A stretch of DNA of 64,000 bases, from positions 310,001 through 374,000 of the forward strand of contig MU058221.1 in the NCBI GenBank assembly GCA_013265495.1, given 5' to 3'. How positions within the stretch are numbered: position 1 is the first letter of the stretch; each line of letters starts with the position of its first letter. The position numbers and the translations under genes are program-made. Below, piece by piece: positions 11,076 to 63,338 of the stretch. The notes beneath the pieces were generated by a model, which ran no database searches, was not told the origin of the DNA, and saw only the letters and a list, made by a program, of their open reading frames with translations. The DNA is from Vicugna vicugna. Lineage: Eukaryota.

Positions 11076-11327
11076 CTGAGGAAACATGAGGGAGAATGAT
11101 GTTTCACTTGGTGCCATGAACTCAAAGTAGACATATGCTGACCTTCAGTATTTGTTTATACATCCTATCTTTAAATATATGAGAAACATGGACTCTCTCC
11201 ATTCTAATATACTTCACTGCCTGTCAGGAGGAAATTTACTTCAGATTTATTGCCTCAGAGAGAAAGTTGAATATTTTCAAAAGGTTGTCATTTTGATTTG
11301 GCATCTGACTGTTTCTATTTGTGAAGT

Positions 11328-11640
11328 TGTTACCAAGTCCAAACTCATTCTGCTCGACGCACAACAGGCCAATAACCTGGGAGACGAGGTGTTGGGGCAA
11401 GGAACAGTGACTTTATTCAGAAAGCCAGCAGACAAAGAGGATGGCAGACTGCTCTCTTGGAGAACCATCCTGTTCCAGTCAGAGTATGGGCTCCTTTTAT
11501 ACAAAACAAAACCAAAACCAAAAAAACAAAACAAAAACAGGGGAGGGGGTGTGGTTGGTTGTTGCAAACTTCTTGGTGTAGGAATTCTTGGTTCCTGCAA
11601 CTGCTCACGTGGGCCAGGTCATGGTGCCCCTGCAAAACCT
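11328..11640 (-). mobile_element. ERV1-type LTR, interrupted (same family as 39292 and 51401)
   Basis: Aligns by eye with the other two copies (tgttaccaagtccaaactc...gaggtgttggggcaaggaa...actttatt). AATAAA is on the minus strand. Confidence 0.85.
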
Positions 11641-22794: not shown

Positions 22795-24305
22795 AAAAGT
22801 CAAAGACAAAAAGAGAATCTTGAAACAAAGGAGAAATGAGTGTCACATACAAGAGTTTCTCAGTAAGACTGACAGTCAACTTCTCATCGTAAACCAAGAA
22901 GGCCAGAAGCAAACGGGACAGGAGCTTTAAATTTCTGAAAGAATAATCTGTCAACCAAGATTTCTATATCCAGGAAAATCTCCTCCAAAAATGAAGGGGA
23001 TAGTAAGACTTTTCAAGACAAGTAAGAATGAAGTTGCATTCCTACCTTAAATGATATAAAGCTTAAAATTCTTAGAGCAGAACGTAGCAGTAAATTTTAT
23101 GTCCTCGGATTTGGCAATTGCTTCTTTTATAACATCAAAATCATGAGCAACAAGAGAAAAAAATAGGTTAATTGGACTTCATCAAAATTAAAAACTTTTA
23201 TGTATCAAAGGACATTATCAAGAAAGTGAAAAAAAAAACAGCCTGCTACTTGCAAAATCGGATATCAGATGAGGCTCTAGCATCTGGAATAACTAAAGAA
23301 AGCTTGACTCAGAAAGAAAAGAGACAAAACACAACTGAAAAGTGGGCACGGTGGAAAAGAGTGTGACAATGAGTATGTGTATGTTCACGTGTGACTGAAG
23401 CATGTGCCGAGCACTGGAAATGGACACAGCACTGTAAACTGACCATAACTCAGTAGAAAAAATGCGGGCAAAGGGCTTAAATAGATATTTCTCCAAAGAA
23501 GGTACACACGTAGACAATAGACAAGAAAAAAGTTCACTATATGCAGATCTAAGCCATAATTAGATACCACTTCACACCCACTAGAATGACTATAATTTTT
23601 ACAAATTGAAGACAACAAGTGCTCACAAGGTCACGGAGAGACTGAACATTTTGTGCATCGCTGATGGGCATGTAAAACGCTACAGCCACTAGCACAGCAG
23701 TCTTGTAGTTTCTCAAAAAGTTAAATACTGGCTTATTTAATGATCCAATAATTCTCTTCCTAGATGTGAACCCCTAAAAATTTAAAATAGGGACTCAAAC
23801 AATTACTTGTACATGAATCTTCACAGCAGATTGTTAGCAATAGCTGAAAGGTGGAAACAGCCCAAATGTCCAAATGCCCATCACCTGCTGAACAGGTAAA
23901 ATGTTATGTGTATGTGTATATATATATGAATGTTCTCAGTCCAAAAAGTGAAGTAATGATATGTGCTAAGACATGATGTGCATCAAAAGCATTACGCCCC
24001 GTGAAAGAATAAAACGTCAGACACAAAATATCACAATTTCATAATTCCATTTATATGAAATATTAAGGATATATTCTGAAATATTCAGGGACAAAAACCA
24101 GATTGGAGTTTTCCAGAAACAAAGGGGTGGGGGCATAAGATGTGGCTGCTTGATAGAGTATGAGGTTTCTCTTCTGAGGCCATGAAATGTTGTGGAAACT
24201 GGATAGAAGTGGTGGTTGCAATGTGAACGTATCAAGTGCCACTGAATTGTATACTTTTAAGTTGTTGATTTTAAATTACTCCATTTCATTTTAATTTTAA
24301 AAAAC
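22795..24305 (+). mobile_element. Old L1MB-like: ORF1 end, internally deleted ORF2 and 3' end
   Basis: Motifs ttggacttcatcaaaattaaaaacttt, gataccacttcacacccactagaatg and gccactgaattgtatactttt. Confidence 0.85.
23349..23460 (+). mobile_element. Short camelid-type L1 3' tail inserted in the old L1
   Basis: Matches the tails at 38.5, 48.4 and 61.8 kb (tgtaaactgac.ataactca). Approximate TSD aaaagtgggca / aatgcgggca. Confidence 0.8.
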
Positions 24306-37737: not shown

Positions 37738-38713
37738 TGTCTTGATCCGTTCAGATTTCTACAATGAAAATACCATAGGCAGGGTAAGTTTAACAAGAAA
37801 CAGTCCTTTCTCACAGTTCTGGAAGCTGGGGACTCGCAGATCAAGGTGCCCGCAGAACCCATGTCTGTTGAAAGTCCTTTTCCTGGTTTGAAGATGGCAA
37901 TTTTCTTTTAGTTTCCTCATAGGGTGGAAAGTACAGAGAGGAAGTTCTGTTGTTTCTTCCTATTCGCCACCCTCATGACCTCATCTAAAACAAATTACTT
38001 TCCAAAGTTCCCATCATTAAAAGCCTTTGGGTTTCATGTACACCTGTCAGTATCTGCAAATCTTGAACTCCCAGTTTATCCCTTCCCACCCTCCTCCCCA
38101 CTGGCAGCCACAAGTCTGCATTCTGTGCCTGTGAGTCTGTTTCTGTTTTATATATAAGATCATTTGTCATTGTCTTTTTTTTTTTGATTCTACATATGAG
38201 TGATACCATATGGCATTTTTCTTTCTCTTTCTTTTTCTGGTTTACTTCACTTAGAATGACATTCTCCAGGGACATCTGTGTTGCTGCAAATTGCATTTTG
38301 TTGTCATTTTTTATAGCTCAGTAGTATTCTATTGTATAAATATACTACAACTTCTTTATCCAGTCATCTATCGATGGACATTTAAGTTGTTTCCATGCCT
38401 TGGCTATATAGAAAATGGATAAACAAGTTTATACTGTATAGCACAGGGAAATATATTCAATATTTGTAGTAGCTTATGGTGAAAAAGAATATGAAAATGA
38501 ATGTATGTATATTCATGTATGACTGAAGAATTGTGTTGTACACCAGAAATTGACTCAACATTGTAAACTGACAACAATTCAATAAAAAAATAAATAAATA
38601 AAATTTCAAGGCAAAAAACCGAAAGACAAACAAACAAAAAAGCCTTTATGTTGGGGGTTAGTGTTTCAACATAGGAATTTGGGGCAGGGGACATGAATAT
38701 TCAGTGTACCACA
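37738..38713 (-). mobile_element. MLT1A-like LTR split by an L1 insertion
   Basis: Left part ctcacagttctggaagctggg...gatcaaggtgcc...ctcatgacctcatctaa; right part ttgggggttag...tttcaacataggaatttgggg. Confidence 0.85.
38029..38637 (+). mobile_element. Camelid-type L1, 5'-truncated with 5' inversion
   Basis: A minus segment at about 38038-38406 (FAATQMSLENVILSEVNQK) is followed by a plus 3'UTR and A-rich tail. The TSD AAAAGCCTTT is at 38019-38028 and 38638-38647. Confidence 0.92.
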
Positions 38714-39291
38714 AATCTCTAGTTCTTGAATTTTCAAATCACAGCTTTGCAATAATCTTCTCTACTGGTTTCCTGCAATGCCGCATTTCTTAAACAAAGA
38801 GGAAGTTGCTGTGAGTCAGCTTTTGGCATATCCTTTCCTTTGTTTACATTTTGTTCCAGGGATATCTGATGTATCAAATTTACTCTAATGCAATGACTCC
38901 ATATCTAGACTCCAAAAATGACTCAGGCTTTCCCTGTTTCCTTTCATCATATCAATAAAGTTTGAGAAAAAAGATTAGGGAAGTTGTGTTCTTGGGGTAA
39001 TTTTATTAGATATTTAGCATTAAACGTATTTCAATCTTCCAATATATAGAAAAACATAGCTTCTAATGAACTTCCAGATTCTCATCAAAATGACAATTTC
39101 ATGTAATTTTCACATTTTTCAGAGTTAAATTTTTACCATCCATGCCACTGGCTTTAATACAATGTCTTGTTTGTTTTCTGTATCAGTCATTCACCACCTT
39201 TCCCAGTGCACCAGATCTCGTAGTTGTTAGTTCTTGGTCACATTGTGAGGCTTTCTAACAGAATCAAATATCAAATAGTATCAGGAAGAAG

Positions 39292-39731
39292 TGTTACTGA
39301 GTCCCAGCTTGCTCTGCTCGTGCACGACAGGCCAATACATTGGGAGATGAGGTGCTGGGGCAAGGAATAGTGACTTTATTTGGAAAGTCAGCAGACCGAG
39401 AGGATGGCAGACAATGTCTTGGAGAACCATCCTACTCCAGTCAGAATACAGGCTCCTTTCATGCACACAAAAAAAGGGGTGTGTGTGGAAGGGGTGTGGT
39501 TAGTTGTTGCAAACTTCTGGCTGCAGGAATTCTTTGTTCCTGAAGCTGTCCACGTGGGCCAGCTCATGGTGCTCCTGCAAAACCTCCAACAAAACAAATG
39601 TCATTCTCTATTCTGCAATTTTGTTATCTTCACGTGAGGGCAGAGCTAGCAAGACAGCCTAGGAAACCGCCCAGTCCTTAAAACTAAAGGAACAGAGCTA
39701 ATAATAGTCAGATTTGTTCTTTTCTATTACA
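39292..39731 (-). mobile_element. ERV1-type solo LTR (440 bp)
   Basis: TGTTA...TTACA ends, 4-bp TSD GAAG on both sides, AATAAA on the minus strand. Confidence 0.9.
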
Positions 39732-44344: not shown

Positions 44345-44763
44345 AAATTACACAAGCAATGTATGTTTATTGCAGAACAGATATAAAATAAAGATTAGCA
44401 AAAAGAATAAAATAAAAGAATGCTCATTAGCCTATAAAGGGAAAGACTGACAAGTCATTTGTTGCTTCTGTCTTTTGTGTCAGATTCAGGAAGCCAAGAA
44501 GGAGCAAAAAATAAAACAAAAAACAAAACAAAACAAAACCCAAAAGATTCAAAACCCAAACCAAATTTTGGTTGATTTAACAACCTAGCTATCTCAGTTC
44601 TGCAACTACCAGGATTGTTCTAACAACAGATGGCCCTCAATTTTTTAATATAATACATTTTAAATTACACAAGCAATGTATGTTTATCACAGAACAGATA
44701 TAAAATAAAGATTAGCAAAAAGAATAAAATAAAAAGATGTTCATTAGCCTATAATGGGAAAGA
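44345..44763 (+). repeat. Spaced direct duplication of about 102 bp (44345-44446 and 44662-44763)
   Basis: Two near-identical copies of aaattacacaagcaatgtatgttta...cattagcctataa.gggaaaga with few mismatches. Confidence 0.95.
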
Positions 44764-47453: not shown

Positions 47454-48469
47454 TTTTGAGGAATCTCCACACTGTTTTCCACAGTGGCTGCACCAAACTG
47501 CATTCCCACCAGCAGTGTAGGAGGGTTCCCTTCTCTCCACAGCCTCTCCAGCATTTGTCATTTGTGGACTTTTAAGTGATGGCCATTCTGACTGGTGTGA
47601 GGTGAGACCTCACTGTAGTCTGATTTGTGTTTCTCTGATATTGAGCATTTTTTCATGTGCCTATTGACCATTTGTATGTCTTCATTGGAGAACTGTTTGC
47701 TTAGGTCTTCTGCCCATTTTTGGATTGCATTGTTTGTTTTTTTCCTATGAAGTCATTCAAGCTGTTTATATATTCTGAAAATTAAGCCTTTCTCAGTCTC
47801 ATCTTTTGCAAATATTCTTTCCCATTGCTATATGACCCATCAGTCCCACTCCTGGGCATATATCCAGACGGAACCTTAATTCAAAAAGATACATGCACCT
47901 CAGTGTTAATAGCAGCACTATTTACAACAGCCAAGACATGGAAACAACCTAAATGTCCATCAACATATGACTGGATAAAAAAGGTGTGGTATATTTATAC
48001 AATGGAATACTACTCTGCCATAAAAAATGATAAAATAATGCCATTTGCAGCAACATGGATGGACCTGGAGAATGTCATTCTAAGTGAAGTAAACCAGAAA
48101 GAGAAAGAAAAACACTATATGATATCACTTATATGTGGAATCAAAAAAAAAAGACAAACTAATTTACAAAACAGAAACAGACTCATAGACATAGAAGACA
48201 AACTTATGGTTACCAGTGGGGGAAGGGGGTGGGAAGGGATAAATTAGGAGTTTGAAATTTGCAGATACTAATATATATAAAATAGATAAACAGTAAGTTT
48301 ATACTGTATAGCACAGGGAACTATATTCAGTATCTCGTGGTAACGTATAGTTAAAAATTATGTGAAAACAAATACATGTTCCTATATGACTGAAGTATTG
48401 TGCTGTACACCAGAAATTGACACAACATTGTAAACTCACTAAACTTTAATAAAAAATATATTTAAAAAA
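47454..48469 (+). mobile_element. Camelid-type L1, 5'-truncated with 5' inversion
   Basis: A minus segment (47454-47826) is followed by the plus ORF2 C-terminus (PLLGIYP...WKQPKCPS...WYIYTMEYYSAIK), 3'UTR and poly-A. TSD aagaatctctttgtc (47439-47453) / aagaatcattttgtc (48470-48484). Confidence 0.93.
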
Positions 48470-49512
48470 AAGAATCATTTTGTCAAGTCCTAGAACAAGT
48501 CATTTGGGCATTCAATGTACAATTGCATTAAATTAATAAATTGAATAGAAATTAAACACTTAATGATATTGGATCTTGTTATTAGGGATGATTGGATTTT
48601 TTTTAGCTTTTCTTCCTTTTGCTACAGTGGTTAACTTTTAAGGTTTTCTTTAGCTACATGACAAAAATTTCGTTGTGTTGTAAATTTTATCCAAACAAAT
48701 TACGCTTTTTATAATTTGTCTTTAGTGTGAAATAATTATTTTCCCACTTATTTTAGTAAATAGATATTTTGGGAGTAACGTAGAGATTTCAATTCTTAAA
48801 TATTTATGTCTCTATCATTTTTTTTCATCCATCGAGGATCTATAGAACTAAATTAAGCCTTGTTCTTTCTATCCAGTGGGGAAATGTCCTTTATATGGAA
48901 TGCTGACAGTGGGTCTCCCTTACCGTGGGTCACCATTCTTGCCTCTAGTCTTTGATTCTCTAAGCAAGGACCTTAGGAATAGAAATATCCACCCCATATA
49001 GTTTCTACTGAAGTCTGCTGTGTCATGATGCATTTGGGGAGTGGTGAGTTTCATGTTCACTCTGAGTTCTCTTCATATCCTGTACCATCTACATGACATT
49101 GGCAGACATTTTTAGTGTTTGGCATACACATTAAAACTAATTCAAACACCAATGTAGGGTTTTCATCCGCTTTTTTTTTTAAGTTTTATGTTAGAAGTAA
49201 CATAATCAAATCTTTCCAGAAATCCCCCTCAAGTGTTTAAGAGCTACATTTATATCATTTGTAGGAAATTTCTTCTGCAACCTCAGAAGTTAGATGAAAA
49301 TGTATTACATTTCCCTAATTAGTGAGGTAAGCAACCTTTTTCATTTATTAGCTTTCAGATTAGTTTATCACTCTGTGGAAGCTTTACTTAATATAAGATA
49401 AACACGTCCATGTAGGAAGTATAAATGAGTTTCTAAGGTGGTTGAAAAAGTACTCTTAAGTGATCTAATTGCACACCTGAAGACATTTCACGTAAATAAA
49501 TGACCAGAACAT

Positions 49513-51400: not shown

Positions 51401-51904
51401 TGTACAGGAAAGAACAAATCTGGCTCCATGTTAGATCCGCTTCTTTGGTTTTAATCCTGTGCTCGGTTTTCTAAGCTTAGTCTTGCTGGTTCTGCACCTT
51501 CTGTAAAAGAATGTTGCCTTTAGCCTGAAACACCCAGGCTCTGACCTTTAAGGGTATTAACACTTTTGCACTTACATAAAGATGACAAGTTGCAGAATTA
51601 AAAAATAGCATTTGTTCTGTTGGAGGTTTTACAGGCTCACCATGACCTGCCCATGTGGACGGCTGTGAGAACAAAAGATTCCTGCACTAAGAAGTTTGCA
51701 ACAGCCAACCACACCCCCTCCCCTTTTTAGCATAAAAGGACCCTGAATTCTGACTTGAGCAAGATGGTTCCCCAGGACCTTAGTCGGCCATCCTCTCGGT
51801 CTGCTGGCTTTCCAAATAAAGTCGCTATTCCTTGCCCCAACACCTCGTCTCCCAATTTCTTGGCCTGTCGTGAGGCGAGCAGAACGAGTTTGGACTCAGT
51901 AACA
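51401..51904 (+). mobile_element. ERV1-type solo LTR (504 bp)
   Basis: TGTA...AACA ends, 4-bp TSD AGCT on both sides, cataaaa TATA-like box and AATAAA near 51814. Confidence 0.92.
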
Positions 51905-54410
51905 AGCTGAGGACACAACGTTCATGCCAGCACGGCTCTTGTTAGGTTAGGCGGAGATCTGAGCAATAAACAATGCTTTACTAGTCCCCAGTTCACCTCA
52001 AGCGTTGCACAGAACATACTTACTTCTTGCTCACGTGAAATCCAAACTTACCTGACAGTCTTGCATTTTATCGGCAACCCCCCTCAGTGTGTGAAAAGGG
52101 AAGAGAAACGGAAGGCCTGATGCGCTCAGCTAAGTCAGTGGGCTGCCATCAGCCTTAGAGTAAGAATAGCTGTTGATCTGAAGCTCTCAGTTTGTTGGTT
52201 TTGTTTTGCTTCTTGCTGAATCTGGCCACCCTGGGCGAGGGGGCTTTTCCTCATGCCGTTGCTTCTTACCAGTGTTAAGGGCATTAATGAAATCCCTTCT
52301 GAAACCTTGCTCACTAGCAGAAAGCAAGGAATCAGTGTGGTCTTACAAACACCTCATGAAAAACACTTGGTTCATCTGCAAGTTTTAAAAAGAAAGTCCC
52401 TGAAGTGAGTCCTGTGCAAACACACTTTGGGAAACTATTTAGCTTCTGAATAAACGGGTTGATATTTTCAAGTATCTCCATTAACCTTCACGGGAACCGC
52501 ATGTGATAAATACAACTGATATTACCACTTTACAGAAAAGAAAACTAAGGCAGAGTTATTCTAAGTCACTTGATTTCCCTACAGCTGGGAATCCAAGTCC
52601 AGGTTTCATGCTGGAATATGTACTCACAGATGTTATGCTATTCTGTCTCCAATTAATGTTACTTAAGGTATAATATTCAATATTTTATACAGAGACAAGA
52701 AATCATATCTCTTTATCCTATCTAAAAAATTGAGTAATTTGTCCAAGCTCATCCAGCCACATGAGCTAAATGACATTATGTCCCAAATATTACAATAAAT
52801 ACACTAGGAATGATTCAAATTGGTCTTTGTTGAACAAATCTTTTGTTTCTATAGGTAAATTAAATTGCATTATAAATCCAGATTAACTCCCTACCCTCAT
52901 TTCTTCTTATATCTCCAGGTCCCATGCAGAGTTTGGGCCTGTTTGGGCTGCATCCAATGGAAGGATTGTTGCTTTTTCAGTAGTAAGTGGTCACTCTGTT
53001 GCCAAATCACTTCTGTCTCCCACGTGTCTGAAGTTCCAGTGAGTCAACAAGACACACATTACGTGCAAGTATCAGAGCATCGGCCCTGTGCTCGCAGGGC
53101 CCCTAAAATGGGTCAAACCTCAGACTAGCCTCCTGTCAGACCTCGTGAGCATGTGTCATTCTTTATTCTTTTCATCTTTCACGTTTAAAGCTTTTATTTT
53201 CCCTTTGGCTTCTGTCTTTCCGGCATTCCTGTGCTGGGTCGGTGTGGGCTCTGTGTAGGAGAGACAGTCAATTCTTTTATTGAAAGAGATCTCCGTAATT
53301 TGAATAAGAAACCTCCCTCCCCAGTATTCTTGCCTAGAAAATCCCCCCCGACTTCCGTATCCCGGGCTGTTTCTGAGGGCTGTTACCCAAGCTGCGACCG
53401 CTAGTCAAGTGCTTTCTAAACACCAGGCCCAGCCTTGGCTTTGGAGGCCTGCTGCTCCAAAGACAGCGCGAGTGCATGGCTCCCGGCTCGTTTCTCTGCT
53501 GCAGCGTACCTCTCTGTTTTTCCCTGGGTTAGCATGTTAGCCATTCGTCCCAAGAGGAAAGGAGAACTTTGAACTCTGTACACAATGTCACCACTGGTGC
53601 CCGGCTCGTCGAAGCCAGATTCCTCCGCTCAAGTTCTGCAGACGGCGTTTCTCTGTTTCGGGAAATAAATCCCCGGCTCCACCAAGGCTTTCTCTCCATG
53701 CAGGACTCTGGCTGCACATCAGCTGCTCAGCAGTCTGAGACCCTGCTTAAGTCTGCCTCACATCCTAAAGTTAGATCTTCCTCCTGCCCAGATCAGATTC
53801 CATCTTCTAGCTTTTCAACTCCACCTAAGATGGTGTCTGCAAGAAATTCAGTTAGTTGCAATAGCGGCTTGAATTCCAGGAGAAACTTCCCAGCTTCAAA
53901 GCAAGTATCTGCATCAAGGCATGATCCTTGTAGGGGCACGCAGGATGTTTCTCAGGGACGCTTCCGTGTCAGCAAATTGAGAAGCTATTATCGGTTGGCT
54001 TCGGCGCCCTGTCCCCAGTCCACGGCAGATGCTCTTAATCCGGTGAGTCTTGCAAGACCGCATTTGCCTGATGAGGTCATTGCATTACAACTGAGTCAGA
54101 GACACAAGTGGTTAAAATAACGTGGCCTGTTGTATTTAACACTATTACTATTTCATCACGAAATTCGAGCTTTATGAAAACTATTGCACAATTACAAGTA
54201 ATTTCTTATACTTGTTGGTAAAACGATAAATGAAACATCATATTAACTTTGAGTCCCTCCTGAATTCCCCTGTAATATCAGTAAAGGAATTTTTAAACGT
54301 GTCATCTCACAAAAGAAAGGGATTAGCAGCATTTTAGAAGCGGAAAGCAGAAGGGCGAAAGACACCTGACTTGGTGTGTAGAGCCAAAGCGGAAAAAGCT
54401 CAGAACTCAC

Positions 54411-54529: not shown

Positions 54530-55720
54530 AAAAATCAAGACATTACGGCAAGTAGCGATGTTGGCCTTGAGCGTAAACACCGAGGACGCGTAACAGTGAA
54601 GGATCCCCCCATCCAGGCCGGGGAGGGAAAGCGAGAGCGCGGCTGCGCGGCGCGGACGGGCCGCGGGGGGCGCGCCGCAGGGGACAGCCAGCCCTCCGCC
54701 CGCCGCGCCCGCAGTGTCGGGGTCAGCAGCTTCCGCGGGACGTCAGGGAGGTCGCCGCCGAGGGGCCCCACCAGCTCGGGAGAGGGGCCGGGGAGCTGAC
54801 GATCGGGAGGCCGCAACCAAGCAGCCCGGAGAGCGGACCTGTCAGAGGAACCCGGGTCCCGACCCAGCCTGGAGGCTGCGACGGGCTTTCTGGGCAGAAA
54901 CAAGCAGCCGAGGAGCGACAGGCACGCACGGAGAGCCTCTGGCGGGAAGTGCAGAGGCCAGAACAGCCCAGCAGGAAACTGGAAACAGGAGACAGCTGCA
55001 AAGGGAGAAAACGTTTCAGAATTCATTGTAGTAGAAACATACGATACTTCATATAAATGCGTAAAACTAAATGTATGAAGTGTTTTTATAAAAGAAAGTG
55101 AGGCTGACAAGTGGAAAGGAAGTCGGACCAGTCACGAAGGGGGTGGGCCTCCGCCTTGGAGCCGGAGCGCGTCGGGGCCTCGAATAAGCCTGCGGGTCAG
55201 CTGCCTCCTCCCTGACCCCCGAGGCCGGGGCCGTCCAGGCCTCCTCCGGGCGCCTCACGGGACCACAGGGCTGAGGGCACGCGCTTCTTGTCACTGTCCT
55301 GTGCGCAAAGCGGGAAATAGAGGCAGGGCTTGTCCTCCCGGAGCCCGCTTGCTGCTTTCACCCTCCGCCCCTCGCAGAGCGCGGTGCGCGCTCGGGGCGC
55401 CGAGCCCTCCCTGGAGCCCCCCCCACCCCCGTGGCTTTGCGGCTCAGCCGCGGGTGCAAGCTGAGCGAGAGGATGCGGCTGAAGGGCAACAGGCCTGCTC
55501 AGTACTGAGGATAAGAACCGAACATGCAAACAGAAGTACGACTCGAAGGAAATGTCCTAATGCGGCAGAACCAGGAATTACTACCCGCGGCGCAGCCGGG
55601 CGCCTTCTCCCCGGGGTGCGGGACGGTTGCCTGCTGGCACGGAGGGCAGGTCTGGCCGACCCGCCGTTAGGCCGGGCTTGTTCGCTGCACTGGCGTCCTG
55701 CTGCTGTCTCGCCCACCCCA
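54530..55720. promoter_or_regulatory. CpG island 3, bipartite, probable promoter
   Basis: Two CpG-dense blocks separated by an AT-rich core of about 100 bp. Motifs include CRE-like GACGTCA, ETS-like GGAAGT and E2F-like GCGGGAAA. Confidence 0.85.
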
Positions 55721-58866: not shown

Positions 58867-59595
58867 CGTTGGCCCATAGGTCTGTCTTTGCACCAGTGCC
58901 ATGTTATTTGATTTCTGTAGCTCCATAGTATTGTCTGAAGCCCAGGAGGGTTATTTCTCCAGCTTCATTCTTCTTCTTCAGTATTGTTTTGGCAATTCTG
59001 GGTCTTCTGTGATTCCGTATAAATTTTAGCATTATTTGTTCTAGTTCTGTAAAAAATGTCCTGGGTGATTTGATAGGGATCACATTACATCTGTAGATTG
59101 CTTTGGGTAGTATGACCGTTTTAACAATATTAATTTTTCCAATCCAAGAACATGGGGTATCTTTCCATTTCTTTAAGTCCTCTTTACTTTCCTTAGTCAA
59201 TGTTTTGTAGTTTTGCACATATAAGTCTTTCATTTCCTTGTTAAGATTTATTCCTAAGTATTTTATTTTTTTGGCTGCAATTTTAAAAGGGATTGTTTCT
59301 TTCCTTTTCTGATATTTCATTGTTAGTGTAAAGAAATGTAACTGATTTCTGTATGTGAATCTTGTATCCTGCTACCTTGCCGAATTCTTTTATCAGCTCT
59401 AGCAGTTTTTGTGTGGAGCCTTTAGGGTTTTCTATACATAGTATCATGTCATCTGCATACAATGACAGTTTTACCTGTTCGCTTCCAGTTTGGATCCCTT
59501 TTATTTCTTTTTCTTGTCTAATTGCTATGGCAAGGACCTCCAATACTATTTTGAATAGAAGTGGTGAGAGTGGGCATCCTCGTCTTGTTCCAGAT
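58867..59595 (-). mobile_element. L1 ORF2 reverse-transcriptase fragment, frameshifted
   Basis: Peptides [17 protein letters not shown]...[15 protein letters not shown] and IKYLGINL...[17 protein letters not shown]. Confidence 0.95.
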
Positions 59596-60849
59596 ACCGC
59601 TGAGATATACCCTCCCCGCCACAGTAAATTTTAGACATGTTAAACAGTGAAAGGTTAAAAAAAAAAAAGTGAAACTATGAAGATGTTAATGGAAAAGTTT
59701 AGGAATATTTGTTTAAGCTTTGAGTGAGGTAGGTCATTAAAAATCACAACAGAAGAAACTACAAAGGAAAAAACAAGTATGTCTGAGTGGACAAATAACA
59801 TATAAAAAACTCAGAAAAGAGAAGTGCCTCCCAGGGGAGGGCTGGCAGCTCAGTGTGGACTCTCCTCCCAGGCGCCAGGTACTGGCCGTTGATTCTCCTA
59901 AAGGATCAGAATCTCAGTTTCATGGAATACTTTCTCTAATCTTCTAGAATCGGATTCTTTTAACGTTCTATTTTTTTTTTTTGTTCCTCCAGCCCTATGG
60001 GTAGAAGGTATTTCCTGCAGTTATTAGCTCTGCGAAATCACTATCCCCTTTTCCTTTTTTAAAAAATTTCTTCAAAGTCTGCTTTTATAATTTATCATCT
60101 GTTAAGATATCAAAATTTTGTTTTCCTCATGGACACATATTTTAAATACTTTTTACATCTATAAACCACTTAATAATTTTATATTATAAATTAAATAGGA
60201 TTATGTTGATTAACTCTCAAAACTATACAAAGGGAAGAGAGAAAGATACGTAAGAAAAATCCCTTTGTGGTTGCCCTCCCTCACAACCTATGGCTTGGAA
60301 CAAAGTCTGCAAACCATATTAACATGAGTTAAGAAGTTAACTTTGTTCAGAAATCTTACAAGCCCAGATTCAACAAGAAAAGAAGGCAATCATCCCACGA
60401 CACCTTCGTTTCCCACAAATAAAAGCGTGCCAGGCCCAGGGCACTCTGTGGGCGGTGGGGTCTGAGTCTGTAATCCAGGGCAGAGACCCACAGGCTTGCT
60501 TCTCTCCTCTTTTAGGACAAGTATGAAAACAGCTTGAGTCAGCGGAGGGACATGTAGCTCGCTGGGATGTCAAGCAGGCACGCCTAGAACGCAGCTCTGC
60601 AGGTGCTGCCTGAGAAGCCAGCTTCACACGGAGCGCTGCAGGACTTTGGAGAATTACAGACGCCCTAGCAGGGGAGGAAAGTTCTGAGGACAAGGCGGAT
60701 TCAGACATAGTCCTTCAACAGGGAGAGAAGGAATTGCCTAGTCCCAGCTTCCCTGTCGTGCAGGAAGCGCAGAATGAGTATCCTTGTTGCTCTGCTTGCC
60801 TGCTTCGCCTGCATTTCTTTGATGTAGATTGCCTCTTCATTGCTGCATA

Positions 60850-61003
60850 ATTTGCGTATTTATTATGTCTATTGTCTTTTGTCTGTCTCTTTGCACTGGA
60901 ATGTAAAGTAGATGAGGGCATAGCTTTTGGCTTGTTTCCTGATATTTCCAAGTAACTAGATCCAGTCTGAATCCTATTAGTTACTCAACAGACACTTAAG
61001 TTT
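60850..61003 (+). mobile_element. L2 3' end
   Basis: Motif gtctgtctctttgcactggaatgtaaag...atgagggca...ttgtttcctgatatttcc. Confidence 0.6.
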
Positions 61004-61021
61004 AATAAATACACAAAGGCT

Positions 61022-61857
61022 ATACACGACCATACTTATATTCATTGTCACATTCTTTTTCGCCGTGAGCTACTGCAAGATCTTGTATATATTTCCCTGT
61101 GCTATACGGTATAATCTTGTTTATCTGTGGGTTCTGGCCAGCAGAAGTCCCACCGAGATGGAATGAATTACTCAGGACTCTGTGGGAAAAGTCAAGAGGG
61201 CGAGAGGGACTCAGGGACCAACTCCCCGAGCCTCTCAAATGCTCCCACATTTATTGTGTACAATCAAAGGAAAAATCGCTAACAGTTATGTGATGGATGC
61301 AGGAATTTAGGGAAAGACAGGGTGGGATTGAGACTGTAGAAGCCACGTGAGTACCAAGGCTCTGTTTATCTTTAGGGAAGTCATGGGGAGAGGGGAGCAA
61401 GGTGCATCCTTACAGATGTGTTAGAGCAGACCGCTAGCCCAGCCAGTCCCTTGTCTGGGGGATAACAGACTATCTAACAGCAGGCATGCCCAGCGTTTAC
61501 AGCCGAGGGCCTGGGTCATTGCTTTGCAATGAGCAGAGTGCTATCTAAAACCTCAACTATGCGAGCAAGGCATTGTCTCTGCTTTTCACGGCAAGGAGAC
61601 AGGAGTGCGGACGCACAGGCGCCTGCTTGCAAAGCAGTTACTAAGCACATTTGTTCTTTAAGGAGACAAGCGGCTGGGGTCTGTTGCAATTTGTTAACCC
61701 AATCATGGGCTCCCACTTTTATCTATTCTACATATGCCTGTCAGTATCTACAAATTTTGAACGTATGTTCATGTATAACTAAAAATTGTGCTCTACACTG
61801 CAAATTGACACAGCATTGTAAACTGACTATAACTCAATAAAAAAAGAAGAAGAAAGA
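61022..61857 (+). mobile_element. Camelid-type L1 3'UTR with 5' inversion, interrupted by a solo LTR
   Basis: Minus pieces at 61022-61125 and 61718-61761, then a plus tail at 61762-61857 with AATAAA and an A-rich tract. Confidence 0.88.
61126..61717 (-). mobile_element. Solo LTR (592 bp), class II/ERV-K-like by TSD length
   Basis: TGTGGG...CCCAC(T) inverted ends, 6-bp TSD TTTATC at 61120-61125 and 61718-61723, AATAAA on the minus strand near 61250. Confidence 0.85.
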
Positions 61858-62330
61858 CATATTACTAAATGAAAGAAGACAGTCTTAAAAGGCTACAAAC
61901 TGTACGCTTCCAACCAAATGACATTCTGGAAAAGGCACAGTTACAGAAATAATAAAAAAGATCGTGGTTTCCAGGCATTTGGGGAGAGGGAGGGAGGGAG
62001 GGATGAACAGATGGAGCACAGGGATTTTTAAGGCAATGGAATTATTCTGTATGATCCTATAGTGGTGGCTACGTCATTATGCATTTGTCAAATCCCATAG
62101 AACGTACAACATCAAGAGCGAAACTTAATGTAAACTACGGACTTTGGTTGATAATAATGTGCCCGTGTTGGTTCATCGATGGTACCAAATAGGCCACACC
62201 GATGAGGGATGCTGGGGGGAGGGTAGGGGAGTATGTATGTGTGGGTGGGGAGGGCTATGTGTGAACTCTGCATTTTCTGCTCAATTCGGTTGTGAACCTG
62301 AAACTGCTCTAAAAGAATAAAGTCTACTAA
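61858..62330 (+). mobile_element. L1MC1-like 3' end
   Basis: Motifs catattactaa.tgaaagaag...gacattctggaaaaggca...taatgtaaacta.ggactttg...tgtgaacctgaaactgctctaaaa.aataaagtcta. Confidence 0.85.
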
Positions 62331-63096
62331 AATAAATAATACATAATAAACAAATAAATAAATACACAAAGGCTGGCGTTTCTTTCTTCCAAGTCTAGCC
62401 ACCCATGTTTTCCCTTTCAGCCTTCTTATCCAGATCACCAGCCCCAATCCTTAGTTCAATGAAGCACTGCCATGTTCTTCTCTCTAAATCAGGGTTTAGC
62501 TTTTTTTTAAAATCATATACCATTTTCATTTCCATACTTATGTGTGCATTTACCCTCAAGTTTCACTACTTTCCTCTCAAATTTCTTTAAGGACAAAGAG
62601 AGAGTCAATTTAGAGAAAAGTAAAATGGCAAGTAGTAGTAGGAAGAAAAGGGAAATGTTTGAATGTCTAATTAGAAGTTTATAAAGCCAATAAAATGAAA
62701 GAAAAACAAAGGGACCAAAAAAACCTGGATGTTTAAGTCACAGATAGGGTCTCAAAGAGGATCTCACATGTCGAATTTTGCAGGTAACAGCTGCCAGGAT
62801 CATAACTGAGTGGTATCAAAAGGAGAGAAGTTATTTTCTCTTCTTCTTTTTTTTAAAAAAAAAGATCATGAAACAACAGTAGAGAAGCTTCAGGCAGAGG
62901 CCCAGAGTGTGCTTTCTCCTTTCTTGTGTCCCTGAGCTGGAGGGCAAAGGAAGTGTCGGCTGGAGGAGTTAGTGCGGCCACACCAGCCACATTCACCCGG
63001 TAGAGATGCCAAGGAAAATCCGAGGTGAAGAAAACGCCTACAGACCTGCCCCTTATGGCCGAATCTTGGTCAGTTTTATCTTTTTTGCATACATGT

Positions 63097-63338
63097 ATAT
63101 ATTTATTTATTGAAGTATAGTCAGTTTACAATGTTGTGTCAGTTTCCGGTGTACAGCACAAGGCTTCAGTCATCCATGAACATACATGTATTCATTTTCA
63201 TATTCTTTTCACCATAAGTTACCACAAGATACTGAATAGAGTTCCCTGTGCTGTACAGCATGGACTTATCTATTTTATATGTAGTAGTTACTATCTGCGA
63301 ATCTTGAACTCCCAATTTATCCCCCCCCGCCCGCTTCC
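63097..63338 (-). mobile_element. Camelid-type L1 3' tail
   Basis: Sequence ttattgaagtatagtcagtttacaatgttgtgtca...ttccctgtgctgtacag...cttgaactcccaatttatcc. Confidence 0.9.

Follow-up and report, generated by a model that had tools for sequence, protein, structure and literature searches.

The original reports of L1 3' transduction are said to be those of Moran 1999, Goodier 2000, Pickeral 2000 and Szak 2003, and L1 5' inversion by twin priming was reportedly described by Ostertag and Kazazian 2001. The weak poly(A) signal of L1 can be bypassed for a downstream one (PMC5668948), and cleavage usually takes place 10-30 nt after an AATAAA (PMC13009371). In practice, a partnered 3' transduction is recognized by a second A-tail, with the cargo between two tails and one target-site duplication (TSD) around the whole; 466 of 5,311 human polymorphic L1 insertions carry a 3' transduction (PMC12350158), and among partnered transductions the inverted share is 30% (PMC13009371). 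In twin priming, the 5' part of the element ends up inverted, with small duplications at the junction (PMC5668948). The same transduction tags are known from dogs (PMC13756887). In human, an association of used poly(A) sites with old L1 3' ends, such as that of L1ME4a, has been described (PMC2553571). Among retroviral elements, the class groups of ERVs have been laid out (PMC5753468) and ERV2 is present in camelids (PMC8605555). For camelid L1 transductions, a literature search over titles and abstract openings returned no report, and in the accessible part of a paper on camelid transposable elements transduction figures only in one general remark (PMC8605555).

The window analyzed here is a stretch of 64,000 nucleotides from Vicugna vicugna, in which a 1.35-kb block is enclosed by identical 18-bp repeats with 1,335 bp between the two copies. 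This block is probably (we put the probability at roughly 0.7) the product of a single twin-primed L1 3' transduction whose source L1 would lie in sense orientation within an old L1M copy. An initial annotation had arrived at this mechanism from the letters of the window, describing an inverted young L1 3' UTR, a sense L1 tail, a diverged L1MC1-like segment and an A-rich tail within one TSD; a retroviral LTR that interrupts the inverted L1 arm is absent from it. The feature is real and the interpretation given to it is probably right, while the first description was incomplete. The block and its edges are made up of the following parts, in window positions:

61001..61007, plus strand: L1-endonuclease-like site TTT/AATA at the left edge, read from the sequence
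61004..61021, plus strand: left TSD, 18 bp, from an exact-repeat search of the window
61022..61119, minus strand: inverted L1 3'-UTR arm, downstream part, 85% identical to the L1 copy at 38418-38520
61120..61125, no strand: left 6-bp duplication of the LTR element
61126..61717, minus strand: retroviral solo LTR, 592 bp, GC 51%
61718..61723, no strand: right copy of the 6-bp LTR duplication, with the same sequence as the left copy
61724..61762, minus strand: upstream part of the inverted L1 arm, continuing 61022-61119 collinearly beyond the LTR
61763..61845, plus strand: sense L1 3' tail with AATAAA at 61836-61841, 80-83% identical to four other copies in the window
61838..61857, plus strand: inner A-rich tract, 75% A, probably the old poly(A) of the source L1
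61858..62328, plus strand: cargo, the 5'-cut 3' end of an ancient L1 family, with AATAAA at 61951 and 62316
62329..62356, plus strand: outer A-rich tail, 28 nt, 71% A
62357..62374, plus strand: right TSD, 18 bp

The identity of the 18-mer at 61004-61021 and 62357-62374 had been noted at the outset, and it withstands closer inspection: the window holds no third copy with up to two mismatches allowed, 0.02 matches are expected by chance and none of 100 shuffles yielded two. The 18-mer is the longest of 12 exact direct repeats (at least 14 nt, at most 7 kb apart, whole window) outside one local 102-bp duplication (44345-44446 and 44662-44763, 94% identical and 317 bp apart, A-rich repeats lying between them). 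Its first 7 nt resemble an (AAAT)n repeat and, in the right copy, grade into the outer tail; for the remaining 11 nt, recurrence within 40 positions has a p of ~1e-5. TTT stands directly 5' of the left copy, as the earlier description had it, and the resulting TTT/AATA shows one mismatch to the L1 endonuclease consensus TT/AAAA. The left flank (~60790-61010) resembles what we take to be an old L2 3' end, whose tail presumably supplies the TTT/AATA target. Microhomology at the left junction, between the end of the TSD and the internal priming site, amounts to at most 1 nt as judged by eye, and the resemblance of the left TSD end to cargo positions 61889-61896 over 8 nt was taken as chance. No copy of the 18-mer follows the inner A-tract, so that the L1 pieces are without a duplication of their own.

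The arms were resolved by comparison with the window's four further L1 3' tails (23347-23461, 38418-38593, 48284-48456 and 63102-63256), to which the L1 pieces of the block are 71-85% identical. The inverted pieces 61022-61119 and 61724-61762 are collinear in the L1 sense, the strand flips at 61762/61763, and the sense arm opens with 14 nt that the inverted arm shares at its end, in the first 14 nt of 61022-61119, with identity at 12 of the 14. With its 5' part inverted and continuous with the 3' part, a small junction duplication of 14 nt and a normal TSD and tail, the locus is like a twin-primed L1 5' inversion; it is unlike the typical case in that only ~80 nt separate the inversion point from the poly(A) signal of the source L1 itself, and in a junction microhomology that looks minimal by eye. 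The inverted young L1 3' UTR of the initial annotation is present, but it comprises just 143 bp of L1 split by the LTR, and "young" applies in a relative sense (71-85% identity). The sense L1 tail (61763-61845) was found as described, with its AATAAA at 61836 and an A-tract at 61838-61857. Four CpGs fall in the 104 bp of 61022-61125 (observed/expected 1.29), against ratios of 0.06 at 38030-38600 and 0.16 at 47930-48470 in two other copies, a contrast compatible with the inverted arm being younger or with GC-biased change. A supposed rule that inversions need an un-inverted 3' arm of ~590 nt (594 nt here with the cargo) was dropped, as the arm of the neighboring twin-primed L1 measures ~235 nt; the 590-bp figure refers to the L1 5' end (PMC5668948).

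The LTR accounts for 44% of the insert, which measures 737 bp without it. Its ends are of the TG...CA type, with a terminal 6-nt inverted repeat intact at five of six positions; a 9-mer at the LTR start recurs right after the LTR AATAAA with T as first base, which suggests that the terminal TG has been altered by one base. The AATAAA is located on the minus strand at 61250-61255, 124 nt from the LTR end. These ends, the poly(A) signal near the 3' end, the short exact duplication and the length of ~600 bp make the element like a solo LTR of the ERV2/betaretrovirus-like kind. From the 6-bp duplication we take it to be ERV2-like, by a class rule for which a literature search returned nothing citable. 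No other copy of this LTR occurs within the 64-kb window. With a terminal base changed and a CpG observed/expected ratio of 0.37, it is not obviously younger than the perfect 18-bp TSD.

The cargo of ~470 bp, which we take to be L1MC-like (L1MC1), is ~20% diverged from the majority of its family, as represented by 106 translated relatives. They come from a search of 1.84 billion predicted proteins with the translation of a non-coding frame (62450-62115), which gave 106 matches at E<=0.001 and no match at 1e-10. All but one of these (105 of 106) could be aligned in a stack on the query, and the ten whose records were consulted are unnamed products derived from ENA and Logan contigs. Over residues 42-111, the cargo agrees with the family majority at 42 of 70 positions (60%). 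The relatives show 58 +/- 7% identity to a leave-one-out majority (n=104), and none of the 104 reaches 65% identity to the window cargo. A simulated base change of 20% left 62% amino-acid identity, and one of 22.5% left 58% (95% band ~10 points either way); 60% corresponds to ~20-22% base change, an estimate that derives from translated frames of records selected for likeness to the query and for which an ancient copy and a younger family founded on an ancient copy look alike. Judged by this frame, the cargo is an ordinary member of a large, deeply diverged old family, at ~15-25% divergence. Both the diverged ancient repeat of ~470 bp ending in an AATAAA (62316) and the A-rich tail after it (28 nt, 71% A) had been correctly recognized at first sight.

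Homology to the family spans ~61856-62335 and is zero at 61850 and below; eight of the 106 alignments extend to 62390, into the tail and the right flank, a spill that we read as AT-rich run-on. Six of the 104 records have the length to reach beyond the cargo break, and five of these depart from the family before it. P0029 (one of the 106) tracks the window to the break and then continues for ~19 residues that have no window counterpart. Comparison of the 106 relatives with 59000-61860 gave nothing credible (three weak matches, E 0.010-0.034). Because P0029 continues beyond the break and nothing credible was found in that interval, the upstream part of the old element would not lie left of the insertion, and this one record suggests that the old element was cut at the inner A-tract.

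The 64-kb window contains no second copy of the cargo. The junction between L1 and cargo was found at 0 loci in metagenome contigs, and the motif of the cargo 3' end at 0 loci in metagenome contigs and 0 in viral contigs. A word-indexed protein search with a frame over the cargo, TSD and right flank came back empty, and so did a control frame over the LTR and the L1 arms, so that this negative says nothing on close relatives of the cargo; camelid DNA may simply be missing from the collections searched. The CpG content of the cargo (observed/expected 0.50) was rejected as a mark of foreign origin, with 9 of 83 comparable tiles having a ratio as high. As a separate observation, the antisense frame of the old L1 3' end is often called as a spurious protein (P0001-P0106, 106 clusters in the 50% library), and such spurious antisense-L1 proteins are a contamination class for protein collections.

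Taken together, the sites duplicated at insertion, TSD (0 of 18) and overlap (2 of 14), differ at 2 of 32 positions, or 6% pairwise, with a 95% range of 0.8-21%. If each copy had diverged by 15-22%, the probability of 18 identical sites out of 18 would be 0.0003-0.004, and that of at most 2 differences among the 32 duplicated sites 0.004-0.00008. The argument from age is weaker for the 11 non-microsatellite bases of the TSD alone (11/11, p 0.007-0.03). The insertion is much younger than the cargo, because a TSD of the cargo's age would rarely stay identical at all 18 positions. The suspicion that the perfect TSD is too clean for the age of the L1MC segment can in this way be put in numbers (P(18/18) of 0.0003-0.004), and "recent" is to be understood only in relation to the cargo.

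The locus fits every transduction feature that is testable from the window: one TSD surrounds L1 plus extra DNA, the site is endonuclease-like, and two A-tails (75% and 71% A) bracket the cargo. With an L1 tail, poly(A) signal, A-tract, extra DNA and second A-tail inside one TSD, it is like the partnered L1 3' transductions of human and dog, and the 470-bp cargo falls within the modal lengths of 37-818 bp tabulated for transductions (PMC13009371). Unlike known partnered transductions, the cargo is wholly old repeat and not unique DNA, the insertion is camelid and fixed-looking instead of polymorphic or somatic, it is interrupted by an LTR, and its source L1 is a predicted one. Of the earlier proposal of a 3' transduction with twin priming, the anatomy that matches the partnered definition, the inversion and the age gap all stand; the LTR had been overlooked, and the word "recently" goes further than 2 differences in 32 sites (0.8-21%) allow.

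In the transduction reading, the source L1 would reside elsewhere, predicted inside an old L1 fragment, and transcription would have run past its own poly(A) signal to the A-rich end of the old element. The resulting single read-through RNA would have been reverse-transcribed with twin priming at the present site, which would have been empty in the ancestor, and a retroviral LTR would then have landed in the flipped arm. As for the end of this RNA, cleavage after the fossil AATAAA at 62316 is slightly favored over priming on the old genomic A-rich tail. Further AATAAA hexamers occur in the block, four of them at 62331-62357 (including those at 62331, 62345 and 62353) and one within the cargo at 61951, which the RNA would have passed unless this hexamer arose later. 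Old and new tail look the same, because the interval 10-30 nt past the AATAAA at 62316 lies within the outer tail. The role of terminator that had been proposed for the fossil AATAAA is compatible with the data, as is priming on the old genomic tail, which would leave the same picture. The old L1 3' end, with its candidate hexamer, is reminiscent of poly(A) sites supplied by transposable elements, which were described for the 3' ends of genes and not for transductions (PMC2553571).

The cargo could instead be the 3' end of a younger camelid non-autonomous half-L1 family with an adopted L1MC tail, the L1 tail having been joined by a template switch or being contained in the family's 3' UTR. HAL1 families arose several times in mammals (PMC5753468). 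Such a family could supply a younger L1MC-like 3' end, and the divergence from the ancient family majority would be compatible with it; we nevertheless consider this origin improbable, given that 64 kb hold no second cargo copy and that an inner poly(A) signal followed by an A-tract is the trace expected of a transduction. Unlike half-L1 families, the present block shows neither an ORF1 nor an L1 head. An identical layout, likewise ending at an A-rich tract, is also predicted if a plain twin-primed L1 came first and a later break in its tail was repaired from another L1 tail with a downstream old element and rejoined at A-rich sequence. The 2 of 14 overlap positions that differ would then reflect two templates, and the contrast with the TSD (0 of 18) is the pattern expected of two different templates, though not significant (Fisher p=0.18). 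Such a repair requires two events at one spot, and the cargo ends just past a poly(A) signal, at the natural end of the old element, which leaves this scenario decidedly improbable. Scarcely credible is an old element that was always in place with its own TSD and at whose 5' edge a younger L1 landed: no source locus would be needed, but a perfect 18-bp TSD at that age has a p of 0.0003-0.004, the L1 must have hit the junction exactly without leaving a duplication of its own, and no upstream part of the old element is found to the left.

An unlikely sub-case, contained in the probability given above for the transduction reading, is that the LTR already lay in the 3' UTR of the source L1 and was carried along within the inverted arm. 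The LTR lies in L1 sense and, with one terminal base changed and its CpG ratio of 0.37, is not obviously younger than the perfect TSD, both of which speak for this order. The RNA would, however, have had to pass the AATAAA of the LTR and then that of the L1, and the 39 nt of L1 found upstream of the LTR rule it out as the promoter that gave rise to the copied RNA. Since the RNA would otherwise have to pass the LTR's own sense AATAAA, the LTR likely inserted after the L1 event and not before it. Carried one step further, and to our minds very improbable, a source L1 with the LTR, inside an old L1M copy, founded a multi-copy composite, so that a solo LTR, intact and still framed by its first 6-bp duplication, was dispersed by the L1 machinery along with a fossil L1 terminator. 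Were this the case, LTR and fossil L1 end would pass at many camelid sites for a viral and an ancient insertion of separate origin.

A single L1 3' transduction with twin priming is a known, textbook mechanism, of which the block is a new instance with a nested LTR; the want of camelid reports points to incomplete coverage, and no new principle is involved. If this reading is correct, an "ancient" repeat annotation does not necessarily give the age of the site that carries it: a RepeatMasker-style label would denote a eutherian-age L1M copy, yet the insertion would be camelid-specific. The cargo would furthermore tag a once-active camelid source L1. The nested LTR would serve as a second presence/absence marker for camelid phylogeny.

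As to the surroundings of the block, the window contains no tRNA genes, and no host gene was evident by eye among its 47 ORFs of at least 110 aa. CpG-island-like GC-rich stretches are located at ~54560-55720 and 1000-1550, with no obvious host gene in the window. Another LTR-like repeat is present in three copies (11323-11640, 39288-39642 and 51567-51905) with 74-80% identity. A second twin-primed L1 at 38019-38647 lies within what we take to be an LTR-like old repeat; it consists of an inverted arm (~38030-38405), a sense arm (~38403-38595) and a mixed A-rich tail, and is flanked by a 10-bp duplication at 38019-38028 and 38638-38647.
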